This document shows, in pieces, positions 10,405 to 38,359 of a stretch of 64,000 nucleotides of DNA. The stretch covers positions 5,890 through 69,889 of the forward strand of contig CAUUJG010000005.1 in assembly GCA_963545485.1 (NCBI GenBank), read 5' to 3'. Every line of letters starts with the position of its first letter. The stretch's first letter is position 1. Under the pieces are notes generated by a model. That model was not told where the DNA came from, did not search any database, and saw only the letters and a program-made list of their open reading frames with translations. The position numbers were made by a program, and so were the translations under genes. The DNA is from an uncultured Clostridia bacterium (GTDB taxonomy: Bacteria; Bacillota; Clostridia; Christensenellales; CAG-917).

Positions 10405-10414
10405 TAATTATCTC

Positions 10415-15669: not shown

Positions 15670-15702
15670 GTTATAATTTTGATATTGATTTAATTTTTTG
15701 TT

Positions 15703-16890: not shown

Positions 16891-16924
16891 TTCCCCTACT
16901 CCAAGTTAATTACTATAGTACATG

Positions 16925-17407: not shown

Positions 17408-17435
17408 TATTTCCTCCAAAATTTAATATATTAAA

Positions 17436-17466
17436 ATCTTACCCCCCCCCCATTTAATTTTGTCAA
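17436..17466 (-). promoter_or_regulatory. sigma-A-type promoter with a G10 tract inside the spacer
   Basis: The minus strand reads TTGACA(17466-17461)-AAATTAAAT-G10(17451-17442)-TAAGAT(17441-17436). The spacer is 19 nt. RBS GGAGGAA and the ATG at 17407 follow. Confidence 0.65.
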
Positions 17467-17832
17467 TAGTTGAGTGAATTCGAGGTTATGAAAACATATG
17501 CAGTGGTCATTCAAATTAATATGATAATTCTTGGAAAAATAAAAAAGCCCCTATTTCTAGAAGCCATAATTTGAGAACATTCACCATATTCTCCCAACAA
17601 CTCAACTCATCAATAACCGCACATCTAACCCACTCAATTGACCAAATTCAACACCTCTGCTCCACAAGTATTATTAAGCTTAATCTACAAACCCACGCAC
17701 CCAAAATTGCTACCTGATCATATCGAATTTACCCAAAATATTGCCCCTATGTGCCCTTGTTTTGATGGTTTGATTTCTTTTGATGGGATTATCAACGGTG
17801 AGCGGAGAGACCTTGGAATTGAGGGAAATGGT

Positions 17833-17869
17833 TATAATAAAATATGGACATCGTGTTGGGACATCCATA
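17833..17869 (-). terminator. intrinsic terminator at the end of repeat B
   Basis: The minus strand reads TATGGATGTC-CCAACAC-GATGTCCATA followed by TTTTATTAT, downstream of res. Confidence 0.55.
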
Positions 17870-17961
17870 CTCTTAATATTTTTCTTTATTTGATTATAAA
17901 CTCTCCCCCTAACAAACTATTTCATAAATCCTAATTGTTTTGTCATATGGCACATCACCAT

Positions 17962-20175: not shown

Positions 20176-21889
20176 GATTCTCCAACCTCCTTCATTTCAA
20201 AATCAAAATAATAATCTGGAATTGTTTGTATTTTCACTTTATCAAAAAGCTCTATCTGCTTAGTCGATAACAAAACTTCTCTAGAAATGTATATACACTC
20301 TGGAAAATTGTTTTTATCCCATTTTGCTTCCAAATCGTCTGCAGCACTATCGTTTAATAAAACAACATATTTCTTGCCGTCAATCTTTATTCCATTTTCA
20401 AGTTGTATCATTTCACATACGTGTTCAAGTAAGGCATCTAATAAAAAGTCCTCATCTCGTGATACAAAATCTGTCTTGTAATATTTTAAATTATGTGGTA
20501 ACTCCTTCTGAATATTCTTAAGCCTTTGATAGGTGACTTCCTCGCAAATTTTATTCTCATTATTCGTGCAAAGTATATATCTGCGATTCCCGCCATCTTC
20601 TTTGTTTAATTCAATCACTGCATGACCTGTTGTACCTGAACCCGCAAAAAAATCTAAAATTATTGTGGGTTCGCTATTCTTTGTTTCTGCACTTTTAATC
20701 AAGCGTTTTAATAACTTTAATGGTTTTGGATAATCAAATTTACCTCGACCTAATATTTTGATGACTTCATTGTTCCCGTTTGTTGAATCAGTAATTATAT
20801 TTTTTAAATTCGTAGAGAACATGTCTCTAATTTTTGTAAATATCCTAAATGTGTCTCCGTCCTTTTGAAAATGAAGATTTTCTACATCTTCACAAACTTT
20901 TTTTTCAGACCATCTCCATGCATGAAATTTATGTATACCATCTGCATTGTTGTGAGGTTTTATCAAAACAAAATTTGGATCTATTTTTTTTACTACTTCT
21001 CCATCATCTATCTTGGCAGTAATTACTTCTTTCGTTCTATCATTATAATAAATGTTATAAACTAAATTTGGTCTAGTTTCTTCATTGAAGGCAGAGTTCG
21101 TGTTAAATAACTCATTTTTAATCACATACTCACTTATTTTGTCTTTATATATTCTATATTCATTGTTTTTATAAATTGAAGGCATTTCTGTCGACAATTC
21201 TCTTATGTCTCCCTTAAAAGTATGAATATTTTCACCTGTTGCCGCATATAACAAAATATTTTCATATGTCTTGACAGCTCCACCACGCCCAATTTGTCTA
21301 CCTTTAGAATTATTTATCCATACAAAATCTGAAATAAAATTTTGTTCACCAAATATAGAATCACATAAAAGTTTTAAATTATACAACTCGTTATCATCAA
21401 TACTGATAAAAATAACACCGTTTTCTTTTAGTAATTGTTTTGCTATGCATAATCGTTTTGCCATAAAAGATAGCCATTTTGAATGTCTATAGCCATCTTC
21501 TTCTCCAACCATTGCATCATCATAAATAAATTCCTTCCCCGTGTTGTATGGCGGATCAATATAAATTACATCAATTTTTCCCTTATGTGTTTTTTGTAAT
21601 AAATACAGAGAGTGTAAATTGTCTCCCTCTAGTAGAAAATTATACCCCCCCCCCGCACATTGCTTATTATTTTTTCTTTTACTTCGGTAAAAACAGGAAT
21701 ATTGCCCCGTATATTATCATCAACTGTTTCTGTATGTTCCTCCCAAACCAAACCATACTTTTTACTTTTCAAAGCACTCTCAATTTCCCCAATTGCTACA
21801 AGGGACTCATCATCTGTCTTATTTTGTTCTTTAAGTTGTTGAAGAAAATTTAGCATCTTTTCTCTCTTCAGTTTTGATATATTCCCCAT
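20169..21889 (-). CDS. mod: Type III R-M Mod N6-adenine methyltransferase, frameshifted at a G10 tract (phase-OFF as assembled)
   Basis: The ORFs 21629-21889 and 20169-21512 are two pieces of one gene. With G11 or G8 the frame reads ...RGGGGYNFLLEGDNLHSLYLLQKTHKGKIDVIYIDPPYNTGKEFIYDDAMVGEEDG..., running into the 447-aa ORF that carries motif I (LDFFAGSGTTGHA). Confidence 0.85.
21645..21654 (-). repeat. homopolymeric G10 (C10 on the plus strand) inside the mod coding sequence
   Basis: Counted directly as 10 consecutive C at 21645-21654. The reading frame breaks immediately downstream (TAG at codon 87). Confidence 0.95.
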
Positions 21890-22049
21890 TTTTGCTCCTT
21901 ATTCTTTTTTATTGGCGAAAACATGCCAAACTTTAATACATATTAATTAAATAAGAGAGAAATATCAATTTAATTTATTAGTGACGACTGCCATGAGCCC
22001 GCATCACACGGTTGTCCAATAGAATTTAGTTTGATTAAAATATTTTGAT

Positions 22050-22305
22050 AACGGTACATCTAATTCACCTAATACAAGACATCCCCCACTCCAAATCCCT
22101 TATCAAGAATATTCTACAAACCCACCGCCAACAAATCACTAACGGATAATATCAAAACTAGCCCAAACATTGCCCCTACATGCCCTAGATTTCGTGACTT
22201 TGATGTTTATGACTACATTATTCACCGTGAGATACTAACCCCTTAAATAATAGGAAATGATTATGTATGGGAATAAAATATGGGCATCGGTTAGGACATC
22301 CATTT
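22050..22305 (+). repeat. island repeat copy R4 (diverged A+B)
   Basis: Retains ...ctacaaacccac...cattgcccctacatgccctag...attat.caccgtgag...ggaaatgattatg...aaaatatgggcatcggttaggacatccat in the same order as the other copies. Confidence 0.7.
22272..22303 (-). terminator. intrinsic terminator at the end of repeat B
   Basis: The minus strand reads ATGGATGTC-CTAACC-GATGCCCAT followed by ATTTTATT. It lies 16 nt after the stop of 22319-22849. Confidence 0.5.
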
Positions 22306-22318
22306 CAACTATTTTATT

Positions 22319-22849
22319 TTAGTCAATATCTTCTTTGACATTTATGATTTTCCCTATCAAACATTTCTTCCCAATCAGTCTATTCAAAATGTCTAGCCCT
22401 GACTTATGCATCTCGATTCCAGCGTTAGAAAAACAATACTCCGTTAAAACAATAGGCATTATACCCTTTTCAAACAAGTCTACCGCTATCTTTAGAACAC
22501 AACAATCAGTATCAACTCCACAGACATGTACTTTATTTGGCACTCTGTTATTGTTTAATTTTTTAAGTAAATCTATAAAGTCATTATTAACGCAAGTATA
22601 TACTTCCTTATCAACTACTTCATCTGCTTTAATTCCATCAACCAAATCGATATCTGGATTCTTTGAAAGTTTATCCCAGTTTAAATATTTCCTAAAAGGG
22701 CTTTCTTCCTTATTTATAAATCTAGTGGCTACTACTTTATCAAAACTGCCATTCCTAGTTAGGGCTATAATTTTATCCGCTACCTCTCTAGTTTCATTCG
22801 TTTGGCAAAACCCATTCTGTATATCCACTACAATTAAAATCTTATTCAT
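22319..22849 (-). CDS. isochorismatase-family cysteine hydrolase (nicotinamidase-like)
   Basis: The protein starts MNKILIVVDIQNGF (catalytic Asp block) and contains VCGVDTDCCV (nucleophile Cys block). The ATG at 22849 lies 7 nt after the upstream gene's TGA, with RBS GAGGGA overlapping that stop. Confidence 0.8.
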   Translation of the reverse strand: MNKILIVVDIQNGFCQTNETREVADKIIALTRNGSFDKVVATRFINKEESPFRKYLNWDKLSKNPDIDLVDGIKADEVVDKEVYTCVNNDFIDLLKKLNNNRVPNKVHVCGVDTDCCVLKIAVDLFEKGIMPIVLTEYCFSNAGIEMHKSGLDILNRLIGKKCLIGKIINVKEDID

Positions 22850-22856
22850 TAATCCC

Positions 22857-24083
22857 TCATTTATTTTTATAGTTAAATAATACTGTAGCAATTGCAACCG
22901 CCAATAAGGCAATAAATAATATCCAATTTCTCCAACTAAATTGACTTTTCACGATATCCCAAACTGTTTTATACAATGATGACGCTGTGAAAACTGCTAG
23001 GAATATATCAACCACCACTTTGTTCTTTTTCTTCCTGTCTAGATTTTGTGCCTCTTTTATTTTCTTTTGAATACTTATTTGATTTGCTACTGATTTATAT
23101 AATTGTTTGACTTCTGATGTAGCTATTACCTTTTCAAGTATTGTTTTATACAGTGAACTCATATTGGCACTTATTCCATTCTCTAACTCTGAATGTGAGT
23201 ATTCAATTAAACTTGCTAGCCTTTGCAAACTCTCCATACTGCATGTACTAGTCTTGGTTATGTTGTCCATACAATTGTCGGCAATAAACCATCTAGATTG
23301 GATATATGCCTCTACTTTAATTAACTCAGAAATCAATGGTATGTTCAAAACTTCTTCATAGCTTGTTAAATTTCTTTCTGCCTCAACTGCTACACCAGAC
23401 CAAGAGTAATATGATAAGGCATTGTCTGCTTCCAATACGTACTTTACTTTTTCTGCTTTACTTGCTTTTATATTTTTATCTATATTTGCCCATTCACTAT
23501 TAGTAGTAACTTTGTTAAAAATCTTTGACTCCATTAAGTGATTAATTTCATTTTCGTTCAATGCATTCTTATTAATCAAATAAACTGTCAACACATACGA
23601 CAACCCATCGGCTTTATATGTTTTTGCCCCTGAAAATTTTCTAGTATGTGGAATCAATTTTTTCTTTACGCCCTCGCCTACTATCTTCCAACATAAATCA
23701 CGGAACAACTCCATCATCTTTTTCTCTTCTGCAAAAATTTCCTTATCTTCGAAACGATTCAATATTGCTGCTTGAGATACTTCTTTTTGATAGTTTGCTA
23801 ATAAAGCCTTGCTATATGTAAAAATTGATTTGTCGGTATTCTTCAGTGCGTTACCATCAAAGTCTGAAAGCACGAATATCCCCACTCCATTAGACAGGAC
23901 ATAACATTTTAAATGTGGCAACAAACTTGCAATGCAAATAGATGAGTCCACAAGGTCACTATTATCAAATGAAATCCCATCAACAGTCTGCCCTAAATAT
24001 TTTAAAGTGATATTGTCTTTTACCTCTATTCCATATTCTTTAGCTATATTTATGAGGTTTTGATTGAATGATTTTGCGAACAC
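22857..24083 (-). CDS. hypothetical protein with a C-terminal transmembrane anchor
   Basis: 408-aa ORF with no motif I can assign. The C-terminus has WILFIALLAVAIATVLF (TM). The start is a GTG without a visible SD, so the 5' end is uncertain. Confidence 0.5.
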   Translation of the reverse strand: MFAKSFNQNLINIAKEYGIEVKDNITLKYLGQTVDGISFDNSDLVDSSICIASLLPHLKCYVLSNGVGIFVLSDFDGNALKNTDKSIFTYSKALLANYQKEVSQAAILNRFEDKEIFAEEKKMMELFRDLCWKIVGEGVKKKLIPHTRKFSGAKTYKADGLSYVLTVYLINKNALNENEINHLMESKIFNKVTTNSEWANIDKNIKASKAEKVKYVLEADNALSYYSWSGVAVEAERNLTSYEEVLNIPLISELIKVEAYIQSRWFIADNCMDNITKTSTCSMESLQRLASLIEYSHSELENGISANMSSLYKTILEKVIATSEVKQLYKSVANQISIQKKIKEAQNLDRKKKNKVVVDIFLAVFTASSLYKTVWDIVKSQFSWRNWILFIALLAVAIATVLFNYKNK

Positions 24084-24289
24084 TGAATTTTTGAATTATT
24101 GACACTTAAACAATCATTGAAAATACACCCTAAATCAAAAGGGATAATGTGCACTTGTTGAATTGGGTTGCTTTCTATTACAAATTGCCTAGTCACATAT
24201 TTATTATACAACCTAAAATTAAATTTTCTATCACTGAATATACTAAAGTAATGGCTAGTTCATAAGCTTCGTAGTCACAACATCAACAA

Positions 24290-24335
24290 AATAAAAAAGC
24301 ACCTATTTCTAGATGCAATTTTATGAGAGCCTCGA
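24290..24335 (+). repeat. island repeat fragment (start of A)
   Basis: aaaataaaaaagcacctatttctagatgcaattttatgagagcc matches the first ~45 nt of the A segments. Confidence 0.7.
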
Positions 24336-24529
24336 GCCCTGGTCTTATAAACCCAGTTTTTAACGACTGGCTGTTCTCTCGTTACGACCTCAATCGTACC
24401 ACGCTTTTTTACGGCGTCAAATCGTAAATAAAATATAAAGGAGCTTTATAAAAATGTCAAGATGTCGTTGAAAAACAAATCTCCTAAGAGGACATTAAAG
24501 AGTTATCAATATTAATATGACACATCATG

Positions 24530-24872
24530 GAAAATGAAAAACGCCTACTTATAGATGCCATAGTATTAGAGCCTTCACCATATTCTCCCAACAACTCAAC
24601 TACACAATAACCGCATATCTAACCCACTCAAATATCCTAATTAAACACCCCCACCCCATATGTATTATTGAACATGCTCTACAAACGCACAACGACAAAA
24701 TTGCTACCTGATCATATCGAATTTACCCCAAATATCACCCCTGTGTGCCCTTGCTTTGATGATTAGGATTCTTACGATGGCATTATCAACAAAAAGTGGA
24801 CTAACCCTAGAATGGCAAAAATAATTGTGTGGAGAATAAAAAATACGGACATCAATTGGGAGATCCATATGC
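24530..24872 (+). repeat. island repeat copy R5 (A+B)
   Basis: ...cttatagatgccatagtattagagccttcaccatattctcccaacaactcaac...caaaattgctacctgatcatatcgaatttacccc...cattatcaac...acggacatcaattgggagatccata. Confidence 0.88.
24838..24869 (-). terminator. intrinsic terminator at the end of repeat B
   Basis: The minus strand reads TATGGATCTCCCAATTGATGTCCGTA (imperfect stem) followed by TTTTTT. It lies 21 nt after the stop of 24890-26104. Confidence 0.5.
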
Positions 24873-24889
24873 TTGAAACTCTACACCTA

Positions 24890-26104
24890 TCATTTGTTTT
24901 TATTGATTTGCTTAATTAAGTAGTTCAAAAGCACTTCACTGTAGTCCATTGGTATATCCTTTGTATGCTTATATAACGCATTACAAAAATCTAGGTAATA
25001 CGGATCATTGACATTTTTTGAAACTAAATAATTATAAATATCTCTGTATCTTATTTCTTTATATAACTTACTACCCTCATATAATGACAAATCTAGTTTG
25101 TTATGATTCGGTAAAAATAGAAAATACGATGCTCTTTTATGTTTCTCTCTAGCATAGTTCTCAGCGAAACTATAATACTTTGATAATTGAGATTGTATCA
25201 AACAACCATCACTAAAATCATGTCGATATGAAACTCCATTAATTCCCGATTTTATTTTGTTTTCAATAATAAGAATATTCGTATCGTCTTCAATCCATAA
25301 ATCAATATTATGAAACTCTCTTTTTATACTATATGTAGGATTTATATTGATATTTAAAATTTCTCTTGCGAAGTCTACAAATAAATAGCTGTATTTACTA
25401 AAAAAATAATTGAACATATTTGAGAAAGACAATTCATCATCCTCTTTGCCGATTAAGGTTAAAAAATTAAAATGATTATTATGTTTCTCGTTATCTATTC
25501 TAGTTATTATTTCACACCAAATCTCCTCGTCATTAATCATCCTCATAATTTCATTAAAGGAATCAGGTGTACTAATGTCGTCAACATACATATGCAGTGA
25601 CTGCTTTGCGAAACGTTTGTCCGCCATTTTATAAGAAACAATACAGTCACTAACTGTTTTATTGTAATGCGAATCTAATATAAAGATTTGTCTCTTCGGA
25701 TACAACAGTTTCTCTGATTTAAAAGTTATAGGCACCCATTCTTCTGTATCTTTTATGTAAGGAACTCCGCCATAATTAATAGGATGTTTTTTAGTATATT
25801 CTTTTAGCTCATGTGAACAAATTCCAAGTTTTTCTTTTAACCTGCATCCTTTTGCATGCACCAACTGACTTTCATCATTTAAGATACTAACCCCTATTAC
25901 TTCAAAACACCCAGTTTCATATAATCTCGTGTGAATAACTGCACGAACCGTATTATCATACCTTGAATTAAACAAGCCTTGAGGATTAATAAAGCAATAA
26001 TTTATTCCCTCATCTGAATGAAGTAAATTTATAACCTCGCCACCACCAATACCACGAGTCAAATACTCTCCAGCATACATTCTATTAATAATAATTGAAT
26101 TCAT
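24890..26104 (-). CDS. PD-(D/E)xK nuclease-family protein with an unassigned N-terminal domain
   Basis: The C-terminal half has NIDLWIEDDTNILIIENKIKSG...QLSKYY (D...E-x-K core). The ATG at 26104 overlaps the upstream TAA (TAATG) and is preceded by GAGAGGA. Confidence 0.65.
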   Translation of the reverse strand: MNSIIINRMYAGEYLTRGIGGGEVINLLHSDEGINYCFINPQGLFNSRYDNTVRAVIHTRLYETGCFEVIGVSILNDESQLVHAKGCRLKEKLGICSHELKEYTKKHPINYGGVPYIKDTEEWVPITFKSEKLLYPKRQIFILDSHYNKTVSDCIVSYKMADKRFAKQSLHMYVDDISTPDSFNEIMRMINDEEIWCEIITRIDNEKHNNHFNFLTLIGKEDDELSFSNMFNYFFSKYSYLFVDFAREILNININPTYSIKREFHNIDLWIEDDTNILIIENKIKSGINGVSYRHDFSDGCLIQSQLSKYYSFAENYAREKHKRASYFLFLPNHNKLDLSLYEGSKLYKEIRYRDIYNYLVSKNVNDPYYLDFCNALYKHTKDIPMDYSEVLLNYLIKQINKNK

Positions 26105-26622
26105 TATATTTCCTCTCTCGAGACATAACACATTGATGCTTTCTCATCTGGTAGCACTAAATAAAACTCCACATCAAACTCGTCAATAAGTTCTCTTAGT
26201 TTTTCATACACTTTAGATCCAACACATTCATGCTTATAGCCGTGATGACCCGTTCCCAAACTAACACTAATAATATTTTTATAACCCCTTTGGGCAGCAC
26301 TATTGAATATTAAATAATAACTATCAAGCAATTCCACATAAGGATTTGTTGATTCAAAGAACTTCGGACAATAGATATGTAAAATATCCACATTTAAACC
26401 AAAATCTGGCGTGAATCGTATCTCATTCACTTCCATATTTTTAGTAAATTTTTTTTGACAATAATCTTCTAATTCTCGCATGCCTGCTCGTTTATATGTT
26501 TGTCCACAAATGCCACTGCCATATAACATATATTTATTATTGCTATTAACGATTAAATCTTTGCCACCCAAATAGTCGAATAAAGTGCCAGTTACTATGT
26601 GCAGTTTGTTAGTTCTTTCCAT
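26104..26622 (-). CDS. macrodomain (ADP-ribose binding/hydrolase) protein
   Basis: 172 aa with IVNSNN...GSGICGQ and ISVSLGTGHHGY blocks. These correspond to the macrodomain NAAN...GGGV and ISFP.IStG.yG motifs. Confidence 0.7.
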   Translation of the reverse strand: MERTNKLHIVTGTLFDYLGGKDLIVNSNNKYMLYGSGICGQTYKRAGMRELEDYCQKKFTKNMEVNEIRFTPDFGLNVDILHIYCPKFFESTNPYVELLDSYYLIFNSAAQRGYKNIISVSLGTGHHGYKHECVGSKVYEKLRELIDEFDVEFYLVLPDEKASMCYVSREEI

Positions 26623-26701
26623 AAATTACCTTTGAGCATATATTACGTCACTAATGTCAAACATCTTTGCAATGCACACCTTTACTTTATTCCTTATATT
26701 T

Positions 26702-28108
26702 TTACAGCAACCTCTTGTATATATCTAACATACTTTCCATTTGATATTTTAATAGCCAAGCGACATCATTATATTCACTTGTTTTCTTTATTGTTTCTAA
26801 TAACTTTGGATAATATCTCTCAGTTTCTTTTATCATTTGAAACATCCTCTCCTTACTAAGTCCCCACGACATTGTTGTTAAGTTATTGCAACGATCAATA
26901 CACTTTGTTATTGATGCCTTTACATTGCAGCAAATTGTATTGTAGTACATTTCCATATCGCTTTCAGTTGTATTCTCTTTTGATTTCCTTCTTGTCATAA
27001 GTCTTACTATTTCTTTCGATTCGTCTCCAACTGGTAACTCACGCTCTTCCTTCCCGCAATCTTCAATTACATCGTGTAAAAGTATTGCGGAAATTAACGC
27101 ATCATCTCTAATCCCCATTGCCAGTGCGTGACAAGCCATATTTAAGGGATGATATATGTAAGGAACTTCTGAGTTTTTTCTTGTTTGTCCATAATGTGAT
27201 TCTACTGCATACTCAATACTCTTTAATGTATCATTCAAGTTGCATTTCTTTGCTACTCGCTCAACATATTCCCTCATGTGTTCCCAATCATATATTGCTT
27301 CCTTTGTTTTAAAATCTTTCCCTTTTATACCAATCCTTCGAATTTCTTCAACACCCACAATTTGCAATTTTCTTATCCCCTGTCTGAATTTTTCAAATTT
27401 GTTTGCACGTCTAAAAGGTAATGTTGGAAAGATTGTCGCACACATTGCTGTTAGAATACCTATAGGTATACACAATCTCACCATAAAATTTATTAATTCT
27501 ACCTTCATATTACTATTTAAATTTTGCAAGTAACCGCCACTTAATACCAAAAACAATGGGAAAATAAAAGTTGAAAATATTTGTAAAACTACTATTGCAC
27601 CCTTCCATTCATAAGTTTTTTTATTTCTCAAAATTTCTATTTCACTAGCAATTGCATCTAGTGCTTTTTCATCTGCTGTGTCTACTTTTTTAGCTATAAG
27701 TAGTTCATTTAAGACTCTTGCTTCTTCTAAATCTGATTCCCCTATAAGTGGGTCGACTTCAACTGCTTTTTTTAAGGTTATATTAGCATTAATACAAAAC
27801 CATAAACCCACAATGAAAAATAAGATAACACAAACTATAAAAACATAAAATTCCTTTATGGTCCCAACTTTGAGAGCAAACACTCTTATTCCTTCTACAC
27901 CTATAATGATAAGCAAAATCGAACACAAAACTGAATAAATAATACCCTGTATTTTTCTTTCCTTTCTACTCTTTTCAAATCCACTTTCTTCTAATTTTTC
28001 ATTAAATGCAGGTTTCTTTCCTTTAGACTGTTTTTTCTCTTCTTTTTTCCTTTTTTCCTCATTGTTTAGTTTTTTAACATACTGTTTTGCTAATTCTTCC
28101 ACCAACAT
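26702..28108 (-). CDS. multi-pass membrane protein with a C-terminal SpoT/RelA-type HD hydrolase domain
   Basis: 468 aa with a Lys/Glu-rich N-terminus and about 6 predicted TM helices. The C-terminal part has YIYHPLNMACHALAMG...LLHDVIEDCG (the H...HD...ED pattern of (p)ppGpp-hydrolase-type HD domains). Confidence 0.65.
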   Translation of the reverse strand: MLVEELAKQYVKKLNNEEKRKKEEKKQSKGKKPAFNEKLEESGFEKSRKERKIQGIIYSVLCSILLIIIGVEGIRVFALKVGTIKEFYVFIVCVILFFIVGLWFCINANITLKKAVEVDPLIGESDLEEARVLNELLIAKKVDTADEKALDAIASEIEILRNKKTYEWKGAIVVLQIFSTFIFPLFLVLSGGYLQNLNSNMKVELINFMVRLCIPIGILTAMCATIFPTLPFRRANKFEKFRQGIRKLQIVGVEEIRRIGIKGKDFKTKEAIYDWEHMREYVERVAKKCNLNDTLKSIEYAVESHYGQTRKNSEVPYIYHPLNMACHALAMGIRDDALISAILLHDVIEDCGKEERELPVGDESKEIVRLMTRRKSKENTTESDMEMYYNTICCNVKASITKCIDRCNNLTTMSWGLSKERMFQMIKETERYYPKLLETIKKTSEYNDVAWLLKYQMESMLDIYKRLL

Positions 28109-28295
28109 AAATCCTCCTCAAAAATACAAGTTTTGTTATATATAAAATCTTGTGGCACATATTAATTAAATTAGCCTCAAAGTAAATCCCTAATTCCTCT
28201 CAATCTATTCCTAAAAATCATATCACGCATTAATTTTTCAAACTATTCGTAGCTTCAATATTATTTTTACACAACAATTCTTACATTCCCAACTT

Positions 28296-28664
28296 TCATA
28301 GTTCTAATTTAATTCCTTTTCCCCTCAGATTTTCTATACACTCAATTAGATACTCTTTATTATGTTCTTTGTAAATTGGACTTTCTAAAACTTTTTCTTC
28401 AAGAATATTGTAATTTTCTGTTCTCTTCCCTCTATAATTCTTATCTCTCCACTCTTTAGAAACTTTATACCCTCTTTTTTCCATTTCATCCATAACTACT
28501 GAATGATAAATAAATAAGTAATATGGAGAATATGAAAATACATAATCTACTATTTTATGTTTCTTTTGCCATCCATTTCCCCTAAGTGCACAGCATTCTC
28601 TATGTTGTCCAAGAAGCTGGTTTTTAGGCAATAGATGAATGATTTGTTCATGCCATAGTCTCAT
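28296..28664 (-). CDS. pyrimidine-dimer DNA glycosylase (T4 DenV / TIGR02328-like)
   Basis: 122 aa. MRLWHEQIIHLLPKNQLLGQHRECCALRGNGW matches the conserved N-terminus of the DenV-like family. Confidence 0.7.
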   Translation of the reverse strand: MRLWHEQIIHLLPKNQLLGQHRECCALRGNGWQKKHKIVDYVFSYSPYYLFIYHSVVMDEMEKRGYKVSKEWRDKNYRGKRTENYNILEEKVLESPIYKEHNKEYLIECIENLRGKGIKLEL

Positions 28665-28665
28665 T

Positions 28666-29051
28666 TTATTCTCCTCTTAATAAAGTGGATTCTTGTAAAT
28701 ATTTATTTGGATATTTCTTTAGCAAATTATTGATATATTCAATTAACGATTCCTGATTATTATTTTGTCTCATATATTCTTCCAGTATGCTAAATAACCC
28801 TTGTTTTTCCACTTCAGTTGCTTGATTCTTAAAATATCCCCATATGTGAAAAATGGCATTCTTAAAATCTTTTTTACTTTCTTTTATATTCCTTGCCTTT
28901 TGTATTCTTTCATTAAGGATCAAAATATCAACTTCTTTTTCTTTCAGATACTCTCTATTTCTAAGTACACTTTATGTGATTTGCTTAATACATAATATTT
29001 ATTTTTTACCCATAGCTCTTCACATTCTCTTTTTATATTCTTGTGGTTCAC
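28666..29051 (-). pseudogene. DUF1722 (YbgA-like) gene, apparently frameshifted
   Basis: An N-terminal piece (GTG 29051 to TGA 28944, ...ELWVKNKYYVLSKSHKVYLEIESI*) and a C-terminal piece (ORF 28666-28923, ...HIWGYFKNQATEVEKQ...YL) lie in adjacent frames. The RBS AGAGGG precedes 29051. Confidence 0.5.
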
Positions 29052-29252
29052 ATTAGCCCTCTTTCCAAATATGAAAATAATACATCTATATAATGTTTCA
29101 AATTTTATAAAACAAAAACTTTAAATTCTTACCATTCATAACCTAATTTATAAACTTATATAACGTCACAAACCCTGTTAATTTTTCGAAATTTGCAATA
29201 CTAAATATATATTTGATTCTCCTGTTTCAAATCATAACTACAAATAATTCAG

Positions 29253-29801
29253 CTAATCTCCATTTATAAATATACAATCATCTACTACAACTTCATTCAA
29301 AGCAACTTTACTATAAAAATATTTCTCTTCATCTTTATATCTGTCTGTAACAAATATTAAGTTTTTATTTTTAGAACCTATTAGCAACCTATTTTCATCA
29401 ATTTGATTCTCAATAAACGGTCCATCTATCAAAAGATCTACGCTATTAACTAGTGCATTATCTAAACAATCTATATTTTTACCTGAAAACATAATTATTC
29501 CCAGCCCCAGCTCTTTAATTGCTTTATTAAATTCAATTAACCCCTGCTGTAGAGATGGTTCACCACCACTTAAAGTAACTCCTTCTATATCAAAATTTCT
29601 CTTTGCCTCTTTAACAATATCTATCAGCTTGCCTAATGTGACGATATGTTTAGGTAATAACTCCTGTAAATCTTTATTGCAACAACCTTTGCAATTAATA
29701 TTGCAACCCTGAAACCAAATACAGCATCTATTAAAAGGACCTTCAGTTTTTGTAAATAACTTTATATGTGCAATGTTAAACTTTATTTTATTTAAATCCA
29801 A
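29253..29801 (-). CDS. NrdG-like radical-SAM activase (4Fe-4S single-cluster domain)
   Basis: 182 aa with the CX3CX2C cluster GCNINCKGC, and with GVTLSGGEP and VDLLIDGPF...LLIGSKNKN blocks as in anaerobic RNR activases. It overlaps the upstream AAA+ gene by 14 nt. Confidence 0.75.
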   Translation of the reverse strand: MDLNKIKFNIAHIKLFTKTEGPFNRCCIWFQGCNINCKGCCNKDLQELLPKHIVTLGKLIDIVKEAKRNFDIEGVTLSGGEPSLQQGLIEFNKAIKELGLGIIMFSGKNIDCLDNALVNSVDLLIDGPFIENQIDENRLLIGSKNKNLIFVTDRYKDEEKYFYSKVALNEVVVDDCIFINGD

Positions 29802-31713
29802 AATTCAATCCTGACTTCCCAACTGAAGCAATTAATTTACTATTTGGGAGCAAATTCAAAATCTCTTTATTTTCAAATAAGAATATCCCCAACGGCTCAA
29901 TTAATTTCTGATCTATTGCGTTTAAGATATCACGCCCGCCTTTCATTAAATCTACTTCAGAAATTATGTAATTAATCGCAGTTATTTCATCTTCAAATTC
30001 GAACCTCAGTTTGTATTTTTCTTTTATTTCATCTATTAATGGCATCATCTTTGATCTACAAATCTTATATTGAAATCCCTTATCCTGAATAAAGTTAAAT
30101 GGCACAATATTACTATATCCAATTCTTCCCAACAATTCTGGTCTCTGCAATTTAGTATCAAAGTATTCTTTAACAACATCAATAAATTGTTGAGCAACGA
30201 CCTTCTTATCTTCATTCGGTCTAACGACACTGCTACCCAAATTTGATGTAAACACTATAACGGTATTGCCAAAATAGACTGTCTGTCCCTTTGAATCTGT
30301 TAATCTACCATCTTCTAGTATTTGCAAAAATATATCCAGTATCCTTGGATTTGGTTTTGCTGCTTTCTCAATTTCGTCAAACAATATAACGCTAAACGGA
30401 TGTTCTTTAACTGCATTGGTGAGTTGCCCTCCTTCCTCATATCCTACATATCCCGGAGGTGCACCAATCAACTTTTGATCACTATTCTGTCCCGCATATT
30501 CAGACATATCGAATCTAATACACGCCTGTTCGTCTCCAAATAAAAATTTTGCTAAAGCCTTACATAATTCTGTTTTACCTACACCTGTTGGTCCAACAAA
30601 AAATAAAACTCCTTTGGGGGTAGACTTTGACGATTTCTTATGAATTCCTGTTAGCCCCATGTACGCCTTTATTACCGCTCTTTCAACTTTTTTAATTGCG
30701 TCTTCTTGTCCTACGACCTGTTTTTCTAATTCTTTTTGGATATTCTTTACTCTCTTATATTCTAACTTCTCCCATGGATTATCTTTCTCGCCATATTTAA
30801 AGAGATAAAATAGTTTTTCAAAACTTGTTTTTTCTTCTTTTCTAGACATTCTCGCCAATTGAATTATTTCTCTGTTAGTAAAGTCTTCTAGTAAATCAAT
30901 ACAATTCAGATTCTCATCATCTAAAAGTGTTTTTGTTTCTTCTTTCAATTCTATTTCAAATCCTGTGCTGATTTTCTTTATCATCCTTTTGCGTTCTTCT
31001 CTATCTGGTTTTTGAAGTGTAATGATTTCAACCTCTGGATTGTCACGGTATAACGATATTGGTATAGAAGATGCACTATTGAGCAATATGACTACAACAC
31101 TCTCATTGCAATCTGGTGATATATATTGAACTTTTCTATCCTTTATTGACTTGCTCAATAAAGTTATATTTTCTCTTTCTTCATCATTTAGATGATCACT
31201 ATCAAACAAGTATTCAGACCAATTAATTATAAAAGCACTCTTTTGTTTAGTATCAACTAAATTCTTATAAATTATGTTGAATATATCTGTCGGCGATTTG
31301 AATTGTGCATCGGCTGGTCGTCTATTTTGCCTTACTATTTGAGTACGTCCTACAACATTCCCATGTCTATCATATGCATCCTCAAAGTAGTCATCGTCGT
31401 CGATTAAATCGTAATCAAACGTATCGTCGTCCAAACCACTTATGTCATATGCGTCTCCCTCTAGATTGATCTTCGTGTCTACCAATTTTAAGCTATCCCC
31501 TATGCCAACTGCTCCTTCAATTCGATCCCAATATATGATTTCTCTATATTCCATCTCTTTGAACATGTTTTCTAAGTACTCGCGTAACGTGACAATCTTA
31601 GCTCTGCTTCCACTATCTGATAAATATACATCTCCAATATTGCCATCAATTATGAGACACTTTTTAATACCAGCATTTCTCTTAATTTTATTAAAACTGT
31701 TCTCTAATGACAT
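29788..31713 (-). CDS. ClpB-D2-like AAA+ ATPase with a divergent N-terminal half
   Basis: 641 aa with Walker A GPTGVGKT, GAPPGYVGYEEGGQLT, Walker B ILFDEIEKA, sensor FTSNLG and LEDGRLTD. The N-terminal ~330 aa lacks a P-loop and contains an acidic stretch (DDDTFDYDLIDDDDYFEDAYD). Confidence 0.8.
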   Translation of the reverse strand: MSLENSFNKIKRNAGIKKCLIIDGNIGDVYLSDSGSRAKIVTLREYLENMFKEMEYREIIYWDRIEGAVGIGDSLKLVDTKINLEGDAYDISGLDDDTFDYDLIDDDDYFEDAYDRHGNVVGRTQIVRQNRRPADAQFKSPTDIFNIIYKNLVDTKQKSAFIINWSEYLFDSDHLNDEERENITLLSKSIKDRKVQYISPDCNESVVVILLNSASSIPISLYRDNPEVEIITLQKPDREERKRMIKKISTGFEIELKEETKTLLDDENLNCIDLLEDFTNREIIQLARMSRKEEKTSFEKLFYLFKYGEKDNPWEKLEYKRVKNIQKELEKQVVGQEDAIKKVERAVIKAYMGLTGIHKKSSKSTPKGVLFFVGPTGVGKTELCKALAKFLFGDEQACIRFDMSEYAGQNSDQKLIGAPPGYVGYEEGGQLTNAVKEHPFSVILFDEIEKAAKPNPRILDIFLQILEDGRLTDSKGQTVYFGNTVIVFTSNLGSSVVRPNEDKKVVAQQFIDVVKEYFDTKLQRPELLGRIGYSNIVPFNFIQDKGFQYKICRSKMMPLIDEIKEKYKLRFEFEDEITAINYIISEVDLMKGGRDILNAIDQKLIEPLGIFLFENKEILNLLPNSKLIASVGKSGLNFGFK

Positions 31714-31726
31714 TCTTCACTCCTTC

Positions 31727-32848
31727 TTAGTCTTGAGTTTGTCTTCCCTTATTGGAATCCTCAAAAAAGCGTCTTTGTTTTAATTTCTTTAGTGGCTCAT
31801 CGTGATATACGGTTTCGCTTACTATATGTATGCCATATATTTCTTCTAATATTTTCAAGAATGGTTCTATATCATTTGTGCAAGTTCCGCCCTCATACCC
31901 ATCAAAATGATACATAAATTTGCCGTCTAGTTTTACTTCAAATTCAGCCATTTGCCCTGAAGGTTTTTGTGCAACCATCTTAACTACGTCTTTTTTTCTA
32001 TCAATTTTAATATTGTTTTTTGTATCTACTACAAATCCAGTTTCTCTTATCGCCTTAATAATTGCCTTTAGCGTCGCATTTCTTGTGCGTTCTTTAACAA
32101 TTTCTCGATATGTTGCACTAAATACTTCTCTTGTTCCAAAGTAATCTTGTATTGCAAATTCAGATACATTGTTCTCTCTTAACTTATTTCTACAATACTC
32201 CTTTATTTCCTCTCTTATATATCCATTGAGACTATTTGCTCTCCGTTCTGCTTTGCTTTTAATTTTCTTAAATGTTAGATCTGCATTAATCGGTCTCATC
32301 AACTCTCTATATACCAACTCCCGAATAGTTACACTCTTTATATTTTTTGCTTCTTCTAGTTTTTTAACAAATGCCTTTGTGTTTAACTCTGGTTTTTCTC
32401 TGAGCATCTCCTCAATATGAAGAAGCCCATCTCCATATATTTTTTTATCAAGCATTATCTTCATCAGTTCAATTTCAACTCCAAGGACACCAATGACGTC
32501 TCTTGATAAGTCATTCGATATGTCTCGAAGTTGGTTATATATTTCTGCCAATTCTTTTTCCTCTTTTGTTCTGTTATACCTTACATCCGCATTAAATCTT
32601 TTAGTCTTCAAGTCTCTATTTAATTCAAAAGCAGCTCGTGCTTTTTTGGTTCTCTTAATAATTTTTTCTCTATATTGCAAAAGATACTTTTTATATTCTA
32701 TGACCTTGTCTTCCCCAATTTTTTCGCCAACACGATCTAAATGACGAAGCATTTCTGTTATACGCTCTAACGCCTCTAAGGCAACTTGACACTCCACCTC
32801 ATTCTCAACCGCCAATGCTTCAAAATTAACCATTACTCTTCTACTCAC
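31727..32848 (-). CDS. hypothetical coiled-coil protein (first gene of the three-gene operon)
   Basis: 373 aa, Lys/Glu/Arg-rich and predicted helical through about 270 aa, then a compact C-terminal domain (...[28 protein letters not shown]...). AAGGAG lies 13 nt upstream of the downstream ATPase start. Confidence 0.55.
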
Positions 32849-33065
32849 AACACACTCCCATAGCTGGCTTTATGCACAGCTCAAAAATATACTCTCCGTT
32901 TTCTACGATACATATTACTTGCTTACAAATTTCAGAATTACCGCACTAATTTATATGAACAAAACCGATCTTCCATTCTTGTACGGCATTGATATAACTT
33001 GCAAAATCATATCTCATTTTATATCATCATCATATCACAAATTTACATTAAAAAAAGAGGTAAAA

Positions 33066-34451
33066 ATGTCTACATTAACAATGGATAAGCTTGTTGCACT
33101 TGCAAAGAATAGAGGCTTCGTATTCCCTGGAAGTGAAATATATGGTGGTCTAGCTAATACTTGGGATTATGGTCCTCTAGGAGTTGAATTAAAGAACAAT
33201 GTAAAATCAGCATGGTGGAAAAAATTCGTAAAGGAATCGCCATATAATGTTGGTGTTGATTGTGCAATTTTAATGAATCCTACTACTTGGCAAGCTAGTG
33301 GACATCTCGGTGGATTTTCTGACCCACTCATGGATTGTAAAGAATGCAAGTCAAGACATAGAGCCGATAATCTTGTTGAAGATTATCTTAAAAAGAAAAA
33401 GATAAATCAAAATGTTGCAACTTTATCTAACGATGAATTGGAAAATTTAATTGAAAAATATAACATTGCTTGCCCTGTGTGCGGAAAACATAATTTCACA
33501 AAAATACGAAAATTTAATTTAATGTTCAAAACTTTTCAAGGTGTAAATGAGGATACAGCAAATACTATTTACTTGAGACCTGAAACTGCACAAGGAATTT
33601 TTGTTAATTTCAAAAATGTGCAAAGAACATCAAGAAAAAGAGTCCCTTTCGGTATAGCCCAAATTGGGAAAAGCTTCCGTAACGAAATAACTCCAGGAAA
33701 CTTCACTTTCCGTACTCGTGAATTTGAACAAATGGAATTAGAATTTTTCTGCAAACCTGGAACTGATTTAGAATGGTTTGATTATTGGAAAAACTTCTGT
33801 ACTCAATGGTTATATGATTTAGGTATAAAAAAAGAAAACTTAAAACTTCGTGACCACGATAAGACAGAGCTCTGTTTCTACTCAAAGGCAACAACAGACT
33901 TTGAATTTTTATTTCCTTTTGGTTGGGGTGAATTATGGGGTATTGCTGATAGAACAGACTATGACCTCTCTCAACATATGAAAACCAGTTCGAAAGATTT
34001 ATCATATATTGATCCTGTAACTAATGAAAAATATATACCGTATGTAATTGAGCCTTCATTAGGTGTTGATAGAATGGTACTTGCATTTTTGTGTAACGCA
34101 TACGCAGAAGAACAAATTGATGAAAATGATTCTCGTGTCGTTTTAAAATTACATCCTGTGCTAGCTCCTGTAAAAGTGGCGGTTCTACCACTTCAGAAAC
34201 AACTTAATGAAAAAGCAGAAGAATTATTTAAAGCAATCTCAGCTAATTACAATTGCGAGTTTGATACCAGCGGATCTATTGGAAAAAGATATAGACGTCA
34301 AGACGAAATTGGCACTCCATTCTGTGTAACTGTAGACTTTGAATCATTAGAAAATGACACTGTAACTATAAGAGAGCGTGATACAATGTGCCAAACTAGA
34401 GTAAGTATATCTGAATTAGAAAGTTATTTACAAAAAGCTTTCAAGTATTAA
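33066..34451 (+). CDS. glyQS: glycine--tRNA ligase (dimeric class II)
   Basis: The protein starts [39 protein letters not shown]. The ATG at 33066 is preceded by AGAGG. The track ORF starts further upstream at 32919. Confidence 0.93.
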
Positions 34452-35194: not shown

Positions 35195-38100
35195 TTACTT
35201 CTTTCCCCTTTCTTTATCATTCTTTCTTAATATGACAATAATAATTGCAACTGTGATCCCTATCAAAGCGACTATAGATATTGTTATTCCAGCGACTGCT
35301 CCTTTACTCAACTTTGTGTTTGTTTGACTATTTTTATTATCTCTAGTCTTCTTCTTTTTGTATTGTAACTTCCCAAAATCTAAGGTGATTTCATTGTAGT
35401 TTTTATTGCCCTTTACTCTCATCCTCACTTTTCCTTCTAATCTTTTTTCTTTATTATATTCTTTCCAAATATTATCTTTTTCATCAAAGTACTCAGCTCT
35501 TAATCCATCTTCAAAATCAAACTTCCCTTTCTCAAAAGTATATTTCGGATCAATCGGTATAATTTTATATTTACCATAAACTACATTTTTTTCATTTGCA
35601 AAAACATAATTATCTTTATCTGATATTTCAAAAGTTATCGAATATTCACCTACATTCAAGCCCTTATCCGCTGATGAATTGTAGTATTTATTTGCATATA
35701 TCGGTTCTATCTCTTTTCCACTATATTCATATTCTTGTATATATTCAGGAACCTTTATCTTTTTCTTTTGAACATTAATATTCAATTTGTACTTAATCTG
35801 ATAATCATAGAAGTTAAAAATTAATTCAACACTTTTTGTTGTTGCAAACAAGTATGTTCCCATCGGATAATTTACTTTTATATTTTCAATAAATGTCTCT
35901 ATTCCGCCATTTATTTTAGCCGTAACCTTTTCAATTAAAACTACATCTTCTGTATGTAATGTTTTGTTATATATTACTTCCATTATCTCAATCTCTGGTT
36001 CTGTTATCATACAAGTTTCATAATGAATATCTCCATCAGCAAATGTGAAGTTTTTATCTTTATGAGAAACTCCTACTTGATAGCTACCTATGTTCTTTTG
36101 TTCAGCATTTATAAACTCATATATGTCATTACCCCTTGCAAAATTTTGCACCTGTCCGCTGTATCTCAACATTGATGTAATCTGTGAATTATCAAATAAA
36201 AGTTGTTTTTTTGAAACGCTTATTTCTTTAACAACTTTATATTCCTTATCTTGATACTTAACAAAAAAAGTTAACTGTTTTGTGTTGTATTCTACTTTCT
36301 TTTCTAACACCCTAAGCAATTGCACATTAGCTGGATCCCCATTGCTTACAGTTACTTCGTAATCATCTAACTTTACTTCATCTAGAGTTGTGTATTTTGT
36401 CTTTCCTTTTATATCCACTCCTAATTCATCAAATGTAAAATTGTGCTGAAAATCAAGGAAAAATACATATTGATATTGTCTTCTCTCCTCAAGCGACATT
36501 CCTTTTGTTGCTCTATTTGTTTCTTGATATTGGTATTTATTTAAACCTCCTTCGCTATTAAACTTTTTAAACCTTCCAACTTCATCAATGTTAATAATTT
36601 CTTTATTACCATCTTTATCAATTAATTGAACAACTTTCTGCTCATCTGCACCTGATCCAAAAATTCCCACATCCAACTTTGAATACTCTGAAGTTGCATC
36701 ATATGAAATCGGAGTCAATATGTCTGGATAATTGCGAACATACTTATCTTTAATCCCATAATGTCTACCAAAAACTCCTGCAAATGTTGTTTTCTCATTT
36801 GCAATCCATACAAGTCTAAGTATTCTTTCAACTTTCGAATTATCATTTAATGTAAATACAATTTTTTTATATACGACTTGCTCTTTTTGTTCATCAAATG
36901 GGATTTCTATTTTCGCCTCACCGTTTTTTTTAACGAATGGTTTATCCCCTTTGCCATCAAAATTGTATTCCTTTATTTCAGAGTATAGTGTTGGCTTAAG
37001 CGTTAATGTCCCTTTTGTCGATTCCTCATTAATGACAGTTATAGGCTTCTCTGAATCAACATGCTGATATGTCGTCATATTCAAATGATTATTTGAACTG
37101 TTTGTTGCTAAAAATTCTGCAAAATCAACAATATGTAATTGTCTATACTGGACATGTTTTTGTCCAGATTTGTTATATTCAATTTTTACATTATAACTTT
37201 TCGATGCTAATGAGTTATCTTCTTTTTGAATTACACTAATACTATTGCCGAAAACATTTATATTGAATTTATGCGTTATATCTTTATTCCCATCCAATAC
37301 TTGTATGTTTAATTCATCACTCCCTGGAGCTTTATATGTAATATTAATTTTCTGATTTTTTGTAAAGATATTATTATTTTTAAACTTACCTTGTTCAGAT
37401 ACAAAATTCACGCTTGAATTATTTTTATTAACAATTTTGTTATCAACATAATCAACTGGTCCTCTTTCAGATATAACTTGCTCGCCTTTATTTACAAATC
37501 TATAACCCGCAACATCTAGTTGATTGTCAGCATTTTCAACATACTTATAAGGCACATATACAACTGAATCTCCTTTATGGTATGAATTACTGTTCATCCC
37601 TATAAAAGCTCCTTTATAGGTTTTCCCTTTAAATTCATATTTGTATTCATCATCAAATCCAATTAATGATATGGCATGATCCTCATTAGCACTTGGTTTC
37701 TTTTCTTCAAGATTTACCGTTTCACCACTGTTCAGTGTATTTAGCTTATATATATAATTTTTAATTTCATAAAAAACTGAACTTTCATGATATATGTGTT
37801 TTTTTATCTTCGCTACTTTGTTTTCTCCACTTATTCTTACCGGCTCAATCATCTCGCCAAGCCCTTTCAATTTTAATTTATTCAAATAGCTATTAATTCT
37901 TTTCGCCGTTCCCTTATTTTTTCTTGGATTACCATTGGCATAAAATAAAAGCTCATATGGAAACTGATTTTCAAAATATGAAAACCCATCCTTCTCATCA
38001 TCATCTCTATCTTCGTCCCTAGACATTGCATAATGATGTGTGCTGAAAGGCGATCCCGAACCTACCTCTTTTGTATAAAATGCATATCCTGCCTCAGAAA

Positions 38101-38359
38101 GGCTAATATATTCATTAAGGTGTTTCGCATAAAGTGTCTCTACTGATCTTGTACTTGCGAAATCCCAACATAATCCCATCTTTCCTTGATTTTTATTTAA
38201 TACATAATAGTCATCAAGAATTGAATAGTAACCTGGCAAAGATGCTTCTGATCCCGCCTGTTGTGGTCTTAGTCCCATACCTAATGTCGCTATTATCGCT
38301 ATAATACAAATTATTAAAATCAAAAAACTACTAATTCTACTTTTTTTCATAAATTCCAA
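35195..38359 (-). CDS. large membrane-anchored surface protein with an N-terminal papain-like (C1) peptidase domain
   Basis: 1054 aa with an N-terminal signal/TM. It has QGKMGLCWDFAS (Cys), DHAISLIGFDDE (His) and GMNSNS (Asn) blocks. A long beta-rich region follows, then a C-terminal TM (AVAGITISIVALIGITVAIIIVIL) and a basic tail. Confidence 0.65.
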   Translation of the reverse strand: MEFMKKSRISSFLILIICIIAIIATLGMGLRPQQAGSEASLPGYYSILDDYYVLNKNQGKMGLCWDFASTRSVETLYAKHLNEYISLSEAGYAFYTKEVGSGSPFSTHHYAMSRDEDRDDDEKDGFSYFENQFPYELLFYANGNPRKNKGTAKRINSYLNKLKLKGLGEMIEPVRISGENKVAKIKKHIYHESSVFYEIKNYIYKLNTLNSGETVNLEEKKPSANEDHAISLIGFDDEYKYEFKGKTYKGAFIGMNSNSYHKGDSVVYVPYKYVENADNQLDVAGYRFVNKGEQVISERGPVDYVDNKIVNKNNSSVNFVSEQGKFKNNNIFTKNQKINITYKAPGSDELNIQVLDGNKDITHKFNINVFGNSISVIQKEDNSLASKSYNVKIEYNKSGQKHVQYRQLHIVDFAEFLATNSSNNHLNMTTYQHVDSEKPITVINEESTKGTLTLKPTLYSEIKEYNFDGKGDKPFVKKNGEAKIEIPFDEQKEQVVYKKIVFTLNDNSKVERILRLVWIANEKTTFAGVFGRHYGIKDKYVRNYPDILTPISYDATSEYSKLDVGIFGSGADEQKVVQLIDKDGNKEIINIDEVGRFKKFNSEGGLNKYQYQETNRATKGMSLEERRQYQYVFFLDFQHNFTFDELGVDIKGKTKYTTLDEVKLDDYEVTVSNGDPANVQLLRVLEKKVEYNTKQLTFFVKYQDKEYKVVKEISVSKKQLLFDNSQITSMLRYSGQVQNFARGNDIYEFINAEQKNIGSYQVGVSHKDKNFTFADGDIHYETCMITEPEIEIMEVIYNKTLHTEDVVLIEKVTAKINGGIETFIENIKVNYPMGTYLFATTKSVELIFNFYDYQIKYKLNINVQKKKIKVPEYIQEYEYSGKEIEPIYANKYYNSSADKGLNVGEYSITFEISDKDNYVFANEKNVVYGKYKIIPIDPKYTFEKGKFDFEDGLRAEYFDEKDNIWKEYNKEKRLEGKVRMRVKGNKNYNEITLDFGKLQYKKKKTRDNKNSQTNTKLSKGAVAGITISIVALIGITVAIIIVILRKNDKERGKK

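Follow-up and report, generated by a model that had tools for sequence, protein, structure and literature searches.

What can a Clp-like ATPase and an enzyme of the protein-activase type be doing side by side in one small operon? The question is raised by three closely packed genes on the minus strand of a 64-kb stretch of DNA from an uncultured Clostridia bacterium (contig CAUUJG010000005.1; the whole stretch of 64,000 nucleotides is called the window here). The genes encode a helical protein (g1), a two-module AAA+ protein (g2) and a radical S-adenosylmethionine (radical-SAM) protein of the type that activates glycyl-radical enzymes (g3). The original prediction, made from the sequence of the window, saw in them a self-contained three-gene system, a module of a defence island in which the activase was obligatory. 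Our analysis upholds the gene structures and the place of the radical-SAM gene in the unit, but none of these three broader claims. The three genes derive, by reduction and vertical inheritance, from a five-gene operon widespread in anaerobic bacteria of the Firmicutes/Mollicutes type, and we are highly confident of this structural and evolutionary part of the explanation. As to function, the best overall explanation, and on balance a somewhat probable one, is that of a reduced five-gene conflict system related to Mokosh whose AAA+/radical-SAM module acts on protein.

Related loci were gathered by exact-protein look-up, by a genome scan for g3 and by a metagenome scan for the C-terminal motif of g1, and were scored with a panel of tblastn queries. 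Alignment A4 was used for the g1 locus scan, the wide alignment A6 being too divergent; this single motif scan of metagenomes yielded 237 loci. The census given here comprises the 66 related loci with sufficient sequence on both sides. The great majority (58/66) carry five contiguous, co-oriented genes: a superfamily 1 (SF1) helicase resembling MkoA, a second gene, g1, g2 and g3; in loci with called genes the second gene and g1 share about 20 nt. Very distant relatives, in which g1 is 20-30% identical, have the same operon arrangement. The trio occurs alone in 7 of the 66 loci, which are the window and its own clade, always divergent from glyQS; the form that had been taken for a complete system is thus confined to one derived clade. 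One further locus, L039, of which L040 is a duplicate, lacks the radical-SAM gene; the helicase is accompanied there by a short second gene, g1 and g2, so that the activase is not obligatory either. This operon (L039:5616-13618) encodes a 1279-aa helicase, a 131-aa second protein and a 545-aa g1 relative in addition to g2, and it adjoins Cas1, Cas2 and a 926-aa gene.

The helicase of the parent operon is 1300-1640 aa long, and its match to the PADLOC model of MkoA (8e-95) spans positions 402-1099 of the 1112 in the profile. The second protein measures about 730 aa in most loci and 412-536 aa in distant relatives. It gave no family match above threshold, no PADLOC match and no match to MkoB; its divergent copies show sub-threshold hidden Markov model matches to DUF4145 (0.0075-0.039) and RiboL-PSP (0.004). 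Near its C-terminus R695, N696 and H700 are conserved in 100% of 57 distinct copies, that at L001:5816-8023 among them. This invariant RNxxxH (Rx4H) motif predicts that the second gene encodes a HEPN-type ribonuclease (RNase). No homologue of the helicase or of the second gene was found in the 64-kb window by tblastn, and neither gene lies within 10 kb on either side of the trio in the seven loci of its clade. Three long open reading frames (ORFs) of the window were tried as the missing genes and gave no tblastn match: 41813..44032 (739 aa) encodes an SSF transporter, 17962..20175 (737 aa) a type III restriction subunit, and 49109..53578 (+; 1489 aa) an unknown protein that has no Pfam match and is unrelated to the operon helicase.

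In the relatives, the operon is found near genes for Abi_2, PDDEXK_4 and SNF2/PLD with a methyltransferase, near hsdS fragments and Cas1-Cas2, and in a conjugative element. The five-gene operon at L038:14418-19736 is followed immediately downstream by Replic_Relax and type IV secretion system (T4SS)-coupling-protein-like genes, which places it on a conjugative or mobilisable element. The source habitats of the relatives are all anaerobic (gut, rumen, digesters), as would suit an oxygen-labile enzyme. A full-text literature search, incomplete in its coverage, found no published description of either the five-gene or the g1-g2-g3 combination.

In a neighbour-joining tree of g2 the trio clade forms one branch that lies among the five-gene clades. 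It follows that this clade has lost the helicase and HEPN genes, the simplest history being one event that removed both of them. Within the trio clade the ratio of non-synonymous to synonymous substitutions (dN/dS) is 0.09-0.15 for g1, 0.03-0.10 for g2 and 0.04-0.11 for g3, with synonymous divergence (dS) ranging from 0.35 to saturation. Ratios this low at nearly saturated synonymous sites indicate that all three genes were kept by selection long after the loss. The reading frames of the trio are intact in the window and in L009-L011, L014-L016 and L042. The window shares its gene order with locus L033, from glyQS through the trio to coaX, hom and the genes after it, save for an insert of about 18 kb (approximately 11186..29252) between g3 and coaX that is missing from L033. 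The trio thus has a variable hotspot next to it but belongs to the conserved glyQS-coaX backbone; it is not a movable part of the island, of which it had been taken to be the glyQS-proximal module.

The protein g2 is, as first described, a P-loop-less N-terminal half followed by a second ATPase domain (D2) of the ClpB type, and both halves are borne out by PDB and Foldseek matches. D2 matches Pfam AAA_2 at 1.3e-49 (residues 366-531) and the D2 of ClpB in PDB at 1.2e-55. It carries Walker A (GPTGVGKT, 374-381), a pore loop (GYVGY, 421-425), Walker B (LFDEIEKA, 444-451), TSN (489-491) and GGR (592-594). Walker A, Walker B, the GYVG pore loop, sensor-1 and GGR are invariant even in relatives that are 40% identical, and across all clades of the Firmicutes/Mollicutes-type set g2 identity is 55-87%. 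The ClpB model TIGR03346 gives 251 bits against a cut-off of 1232 and covers model positions 553-832 only. Matches to Clp proteins are restricted to residues 305-617, which leaves g2 without a Clp N-domain and without the middle domain of ClpB. No ClpP-docking IG[FL] loop was seen in residues 489-531, which were read directly.

The D1-like module of g2 retains an AAA-type PDREER motif at residues 236-241. An AlphaFold2 model of the N-terminal half, with a predicted local distance difference test (pLDDT) score of 70, gave 78 Foldseek matches in PDB at E<=1e-3; those listed at the top are AAA+ ATPases, namely proteasomal Rpt subunits, ATAD1, katanin, FtsH and PCH-2/TRIP13. Homologues of the N-terminal 320 or so residues were found within its own family only. 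An AAA+ fold that has no P-loop in this half, together with the intact motifs of D2, indicates that the D1 tier of g2 is dead and its D2 tier live. The poly-acidic stretch remarked on at the outset is present at residues 95-115, but its long form is an insertion confined to near-identical copies of the window g2; copies from sister clades have just a few acidic residues at that site.

The third protein, g3, matches Pfam Fer4_12 at 1e-23 and Radical_SAM at 6e-9. Its motifs are GPxxR (21-25), the Cx3Cx2C cluster of C33, C37 and C40 (CNINCKGC, 33-40), SGGEP (78-82, with GGEP at 79-82), DGPF (126-129) and GSKNKN (142-147, with GSxN at 142-145); all motifs originally quoted for g2 and g3 were located in the sequences. 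The protein aligns with the NrdG model TIGR02491 over positions 2-152 of 154, with 71.7 bits against a cut-off of 126.1. It likewise falls below the cut-offs of other NrdG-related models (TIGR02495, 57.7 vs 131.15; TIGR02826, 43.9 vs 151.7; NF008335, 48.3 vs 199) and of the PflA family (58.8 vs 231.75). Its best sequence match in PDB is PflA, at 5e-5, and its best PHROG match is the phage NrdG family. Twenty g3 family members were aligned with E. coli NrdG. C33, C37, C40, G79, G80, P82, G21, P22 and R25 are invariant throughout, and DGxF and GSxN are also common to the 20 members. The family has an extension of its own of about 30 residues at the C-terminus, ending in NGD, which is absent from E. 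coli NrdG. In PflA, the DGxGxR motif adjoins the bound glycine loop of the substrate.

Among the loci with full flanks g3 directly follows g2 in 65 of 66 and is never adjacent to nrdD, and in no related locus with called genes does a glycyl-radical enzyme adjoin the operon. Nor is a partner of the NrdD/PFL type encoded in the window, as had been noticed before: every ORF of at least 600 aa is otherwise assigned or without a Pfam match. The radical-SAM gene is thus part of the unit and not a stray nrdG; it is truly linked to the AAA+ pair, in many loci and not in one strain alone.

The AlphaFold2 model of g1 (pLDDT 80.5) has helices over residues 12-269, a small alpha/beta domain at 280-349 and a disordered tail, in agreement with its first description as a 373-aa helical protein with a small C-terminal domain. 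No family match to g1 was found in Pfam, PADLOC (E<=0.1), NCBIfam or PHROG, and no sequence match in PDB. The likeness to Dodola that had been suggested would make g1 a DUF6414 protein, and 0 of 35 family members match DUF6414. Searches of the model with Foldseek against PDB and BFVD returned no fold match at E<=1e-3, the best PDB match having an E of 0.01; the weak matches, to the spermine synthase N-domain and AdoMetDC-like, TBP-like and designed ferredoxin folds, reflect merely a generic alpha/beta sandwich. A suspected likeness of the C-terminal domain to DUF2997/DUF1257 was also dismissed, with no consistent Pfam match among 35 family members at E<=5.

A profile of this C-terminal domain matched the representatives of 429 clusters at 50% identity, and 362 of these matches had E<=1e-10; the count is a lower bound for the family. 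In nearly all of these the conserved domain stands at the C-terminus. Throughout the wide family R256, F272, F315, G320, C323, D326, Y338 and P352 do not vary; the core motif is YEGxxCxxD, and the invariant glycines are G271, G298, G309 and G320. GYEG was considered as a glycyl-radical site like the CGYLG of NrdD and was rejected, G317 being E or K in many members; G320 and G309 are speculative candidates for a radical site. Longer g1 relatives of 463-656 aa (P0351, P0413, P0420, P0344) place two or three tandem helical modules of about 110-130 residues, of the form '...YLxRIRENTxxF...Y..L..QGL..YLPEEF...DPExARDLS...', before the conserved domain.

The two parts of g1 evolve very differently. 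When the window is compared with L009/L016, amino-acid identity is 42-45% for the N-terminal part of g1, 77-80% for its C-terminal part and 86-91% for g2 and g3. At the DNA level, L009 and L014 are 79-86% identical over g1 codons 16-215 or so (locus coordinates 10049-10650), compared with 95-99% outside that stretch, in glyQS, the C-terminal part of g1, g2 and g3. The pattern suggests allelic replacement of the helical region, as would be expected for a specificity domain, and we propose that residues 1-245 may form the specificity or sensor part of the protein.

It is probable, judging from helicase homology, gene neighbourhood and evolutionary pattern, that the parent operon is an anti-phage or conflict system related to Mokosh. 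Such a role is suggested by the homology of the first gene to MkoA, by a HEPN-motif protein in the position of the nuclease partner, by the hypervariability of g1, by the defence-type and mobile neighbours, and by habitats that are anaerobic only. The steps of a possible mechanism are given here in order of falling support. The g2 protein would form a Clp-like ring in which the D1 tier is dead and the D2 tier, its pore loop intact, is driven by ATP, and would remodel or thread protein. The fast-evolving, recombining helical N-terminal region of g1 would serve in recognition, while its conserved C-terminal domain may dock on g2 or be processed by it. With SAM and a [4Fe-4S] cluster, the g3 protein, made in step with g2, would abstract a hydrogen from the backbone of a protein at a position that g2 exposes. 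This position could belong to a client protein or else to g1 itself, where the candidates are the G309 hairpin and the invariant region around G320/C323. The module would thereby yield a protein radical or an irreversible modification as its output, and in the five-gene form this output would stand beside, or control, an arm made up of the helicase and the HEPN RNase. The specific radical step assigned to g3 is speculative, and we regard it as possible but doubtful.

Carried to its end, this proposal describes a new immune module, in which the unfoldase hands a segment of g1 or of a captured phage protein to the activase-type radical-SAM enzyme, the protein-centred radical or the irreversible damage that ensues being the signalling or killing step. 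Such a module might act alone, as in the clade of the window, or attached to a Mokosh-type helicase and HEPN arm. We hold this full version tentatively and think it rather unlikely. Several observations weigh against the main explanation, that of a reduced conflict system whose AAA+/radical-SAM module acts on protein. No killing or nuclease effector is recognisable in the trio. Neither the g1 nor the g2 alignment contains a conserved glycine loop of the RVxG[FYW] type, as the first reading of the window had already remarked. The g3-less L039 keeps YEGxxCxxD in g1 and all g2 motifs, none being lost from either protein. The conservation of these motifs is thus independent of g3, which weakens the idea that g1 is its substrate. 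In addition, g1 is frameshifted near codon 228 in one sublineage linked to glyQS, L033 (2434-3553) and L034 (2749-3868), giving ORFs of 228 and 119 aa; the split is found in two independent assemblies, with g2 and g3 intact. Finally, the genes of the trio clade sit in conserved backbone and not in a variable island.

Other explanations compete with that of a reduced Mokosh-related conflict system, and are taken here in order of falling probability. The three genes could be a defence system that is complete in itself and autonomous, with the helicase and HEPN genes of other loci forming a separate system that merely adjoins it. Its persistence alone under purifying selection would fit, as would the strain-level allelic replacement still seen in g1. 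We consider this unlikely in view of the parent operon, where five co-oriented genes are contiguous in 58 of 66 loci and the second overlaps g1, where the order is kept across clades whose g1 proteins have diverged to 20-30% identity, and where the helicase, second gene, g1 and g2 stay together even without g3. Another explanation dispenses with immunity: the Clp-like ATPase would assist the activase in installing or restoring the radical on a metabolic enzyme encoded elsewhere, as a chaperone of maturation or repair. Known activases require unfolding of the glycine loop of their substrate, g3 resembles NrdG along its whole length, and in the clade of the window the trio lies in the glyQS-coaX backbone, all of which speak for it. 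However, a household function of this kind sits badly with the constant linkage to an MkoA-like helicase and a HEPN-motif protein, with a hypervariable g1, with defence-type or mobile neighbours and with the lack of an adjacent glycyl-radical enzyme in every locus with called genes, and we judge it distinctly unlikely.

That the trio is what is left of the five-gene operon in decay, with no function of its own, might be thought from the loss of the helicase and the predicted RNase and from the g1 frameshift in L033 and L034. It is made improbable by dN/dS values of 0.03-0.15 for all three genes at nearly saturated synonymous sites and by the frames that are intact in the window, L009-L011, L014-L016 and L042; even the two halves of the split g1 are still open. 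Quite improbable, too, is a split system, in which the helicase and HEPN genes lie at another place in the genome and the trio works with them in trans: neither gene turned up in the window or in the 10-kb flanks of the seven clade loci, and the operon is otherwise never seen split. There is, last, the possibility of an ordinary Dodola (or PDC-M37) pair beside a stray nrdG that serves an nrdD elsewhere. The g2 protein does match PADLOC PDC-M37B (5e-33, about 110 bits) and, more weakly, DolB (2e-20; residues 309-494, profile positions 117-280 of 375), and the best family matches of g3 are to NrdG. These g2 matches are confined to the ATPase core (residues ~276-494), the N-terminal half being unrelated; g1 matches neither DolA nor PDC-M37A, no PDC-M37 model matches g1 or g3, and g3, which falls below every NrdG cut-off, follows g2 at all loci but one. 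We therefore regard this explanation as very improbable and, in effect, refuted. What stands of the likeness to Dodola is a shared Clp-type ATPase core and nothing beyond it.

The parent operon resembles type I Mokosh (MkoA helicase plus MkoB PLD nuclease) in its MkoA-like first gene and in the predicted nuclease-type gene directly after it. It differs in that this partner has the HEPN RNxxxH motif rather than PLD and does not match MkoB, and in that g1, g2 and g3 are attached (g3 missing in L039/L040); the window, for its part, has no MkoA homologue at all. With Dodola (DolA, a DUF6414 protein, plus DolB) and PDC-M37 the trio shares the pairing of a Clp-type AAA+ ATPase with an uncharacterised partner, but g2 has its own dead-D1 N-terminal half, which is found nowhere outside its family, and those systems, judging from the PADLOC models, have no radical-SAM or helicase component. 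From ClpB, ClpC and Hsp104, whose motor motifs and GYVG pore loop are all present in its D2, g2 is distinguished by the lack of a Clp N-domain, a ClpB middle domain and a D1 P-loop. Similarly, g3 has the small fold of NrdG and PflA, aligns with them end to end and shares Cx3Cx2C, GGEP, GPxxR, DGxF and GSxN, whereas its sub-cut-off scores, its NGD-ending extension, its coupling to an AAA+ gene and its never standing beside a glycyl-radical enzyme separate it from both.

Radical-SAM enzymes are also reported as components of antiviral systems in prokaryotic viperins (pVips), in Ophion (OpnA) and in the HXS maturase, all of which are of other types. The pVip profiles match g3 weakly (1e-7, in the generic core), and g3 is of the protein-activase and not the nucleotide-dehydrating type; Ophion has other partner genes, PHP and PRTase. 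Ophion (radical-SAM, PHP and PRTase) and the FtsH ternary systems were examined as published counterparts of the operon and are different systems. For the module of AAA+ protein, activase and g1 no described counterpart is known; the parent operon is linked to Mokosh through its helicase, and its Clp-type ATPase is reminiscent of pairs of the Dodola type.

If the five-gene operon is anti-phage, it would add a large anaerobe-specific family, of at least 429 g1 clusters at 50% identity, and would bring an activase-type radical-SAM enzyme and a Clp-like unfoldase into immunity. To our knowledge such chemistry has no precedent in any described defence system. The trio clade is a natural experiment, in which the module has long survived without the helicase and the predicted RNase, so that its own activity can be studied in isolation. 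There is also a warning in these observations, since discovery of defence systems by aerobic screens in E. coli would miss oxygen-sensitive systems of gut anaerobes.

The features of the locus are listed in the table below. The gene coordinates and the close coupling agree with those first reported. The 14-nt overlap implies translational coupling of g3 to g2; most related loci have an overlap or a very short gap at this junction, of about 10 nt in L036/L037. The GTG start of g1 is supported by its N-terminus, MSR..., which agrees with all homologues.

Features of the trio locus and of the adjacent insert (window coordinates)
Feature	Position	Strand	Size	Remarks
g1	31727..32848	-	373 aa	GTG start, GGGAG in front
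g1 residues 1-245	32114..32848	-		variable helical region
g1 residues 246-373	31730..32113	-		conserved small alpha/beta domain and tail
g1/g2 spacer	31714..31726	-	13 nt	contains AAGGAG ribosome-binding site
g2	29788..31713	-	641 aa	two-module AAA+ protein
g2 D1-like module	30805..31713	-		residues 1-303; degenerate AAA+, without Walker A
g2 linker LFKYGEKDNPWEKL	30763..30804	-		residues 304-317; near-invariant, joins the two modules
g2 D2 module	29878..30762	-		residues 318-612; ClpB/ClpC-type ATPase
g2/g3 overlap	29788..29801	-	14 nt	
g3	29253..29801	-	182 aa	TTG start; radical-SAM, glycyl-radical-enzyme activase type
Intergenic region, g1 to likely true glyQS start	32849..33065		217 nt	divergent promoters presumed
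tRNA-Ser(cga)	12051..12139			in ~18-kb insert
Type III restriction-modification pair, res	17962..20175			in ~18-kb insert
Type III restriction-modification pair, mod	20169..21512			in ~18-kb insert

The glyQS ORF (32919..34451, +) has a mechanical TTG start; translation probably begins instead with the ATG near 33066 (MSTLTMDK...). The region between this start and g1 presumably holds the divergent promoters of g1 and glyQS. A promoter consensus scan of it gave a single weak plus-strand site (32999-33027) and none on the g1 strand; promoter and terminator consensus sites were fewer than in shuffled sequence, and the scan is uninformative. An Rfam search of the g1/glyQS leader found no T-box or other Rfam element.

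The variable insert between g3 and coaX is a mixture of defence-type and ordinary genes. Besides the tRNA and the restriction-modification pair, it encodes an Fe/Mn superoxide dismutase, a T5orf172 protein, a BAAT-like hydrolase, BspA-LRR/SHOCT proteins, an isochorismatase, a 408-aa unknown protein, PDDEXK_4-like and Macro proteins, an HD_4 protein with a transmembrane part, and small Pyr_excise and DUF1722 genes. The cargo carried at the same spot differs in sister loci: L009 has SNF2/PLD and a methyltransferase there, and L014 has LRR proteins.

On the other side of the trio, beyond glyQS, the window encodes a 1054-aa protein (35195..38359, -) with only a weak papain-like (Peptidase_C1) N-terminal match. 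The protein is kept at the equivalent position, just beyond glyQS, in L009 and L014, where an extra SLFN_AlbA_2 gene lies between glyQS and the gene for this protein. Elsewhere in the window, at 3880..6901 (+), are two tandem LeuA/HMGL-like paralogues of 501 and 512 aa, a pair that is also present in L033.

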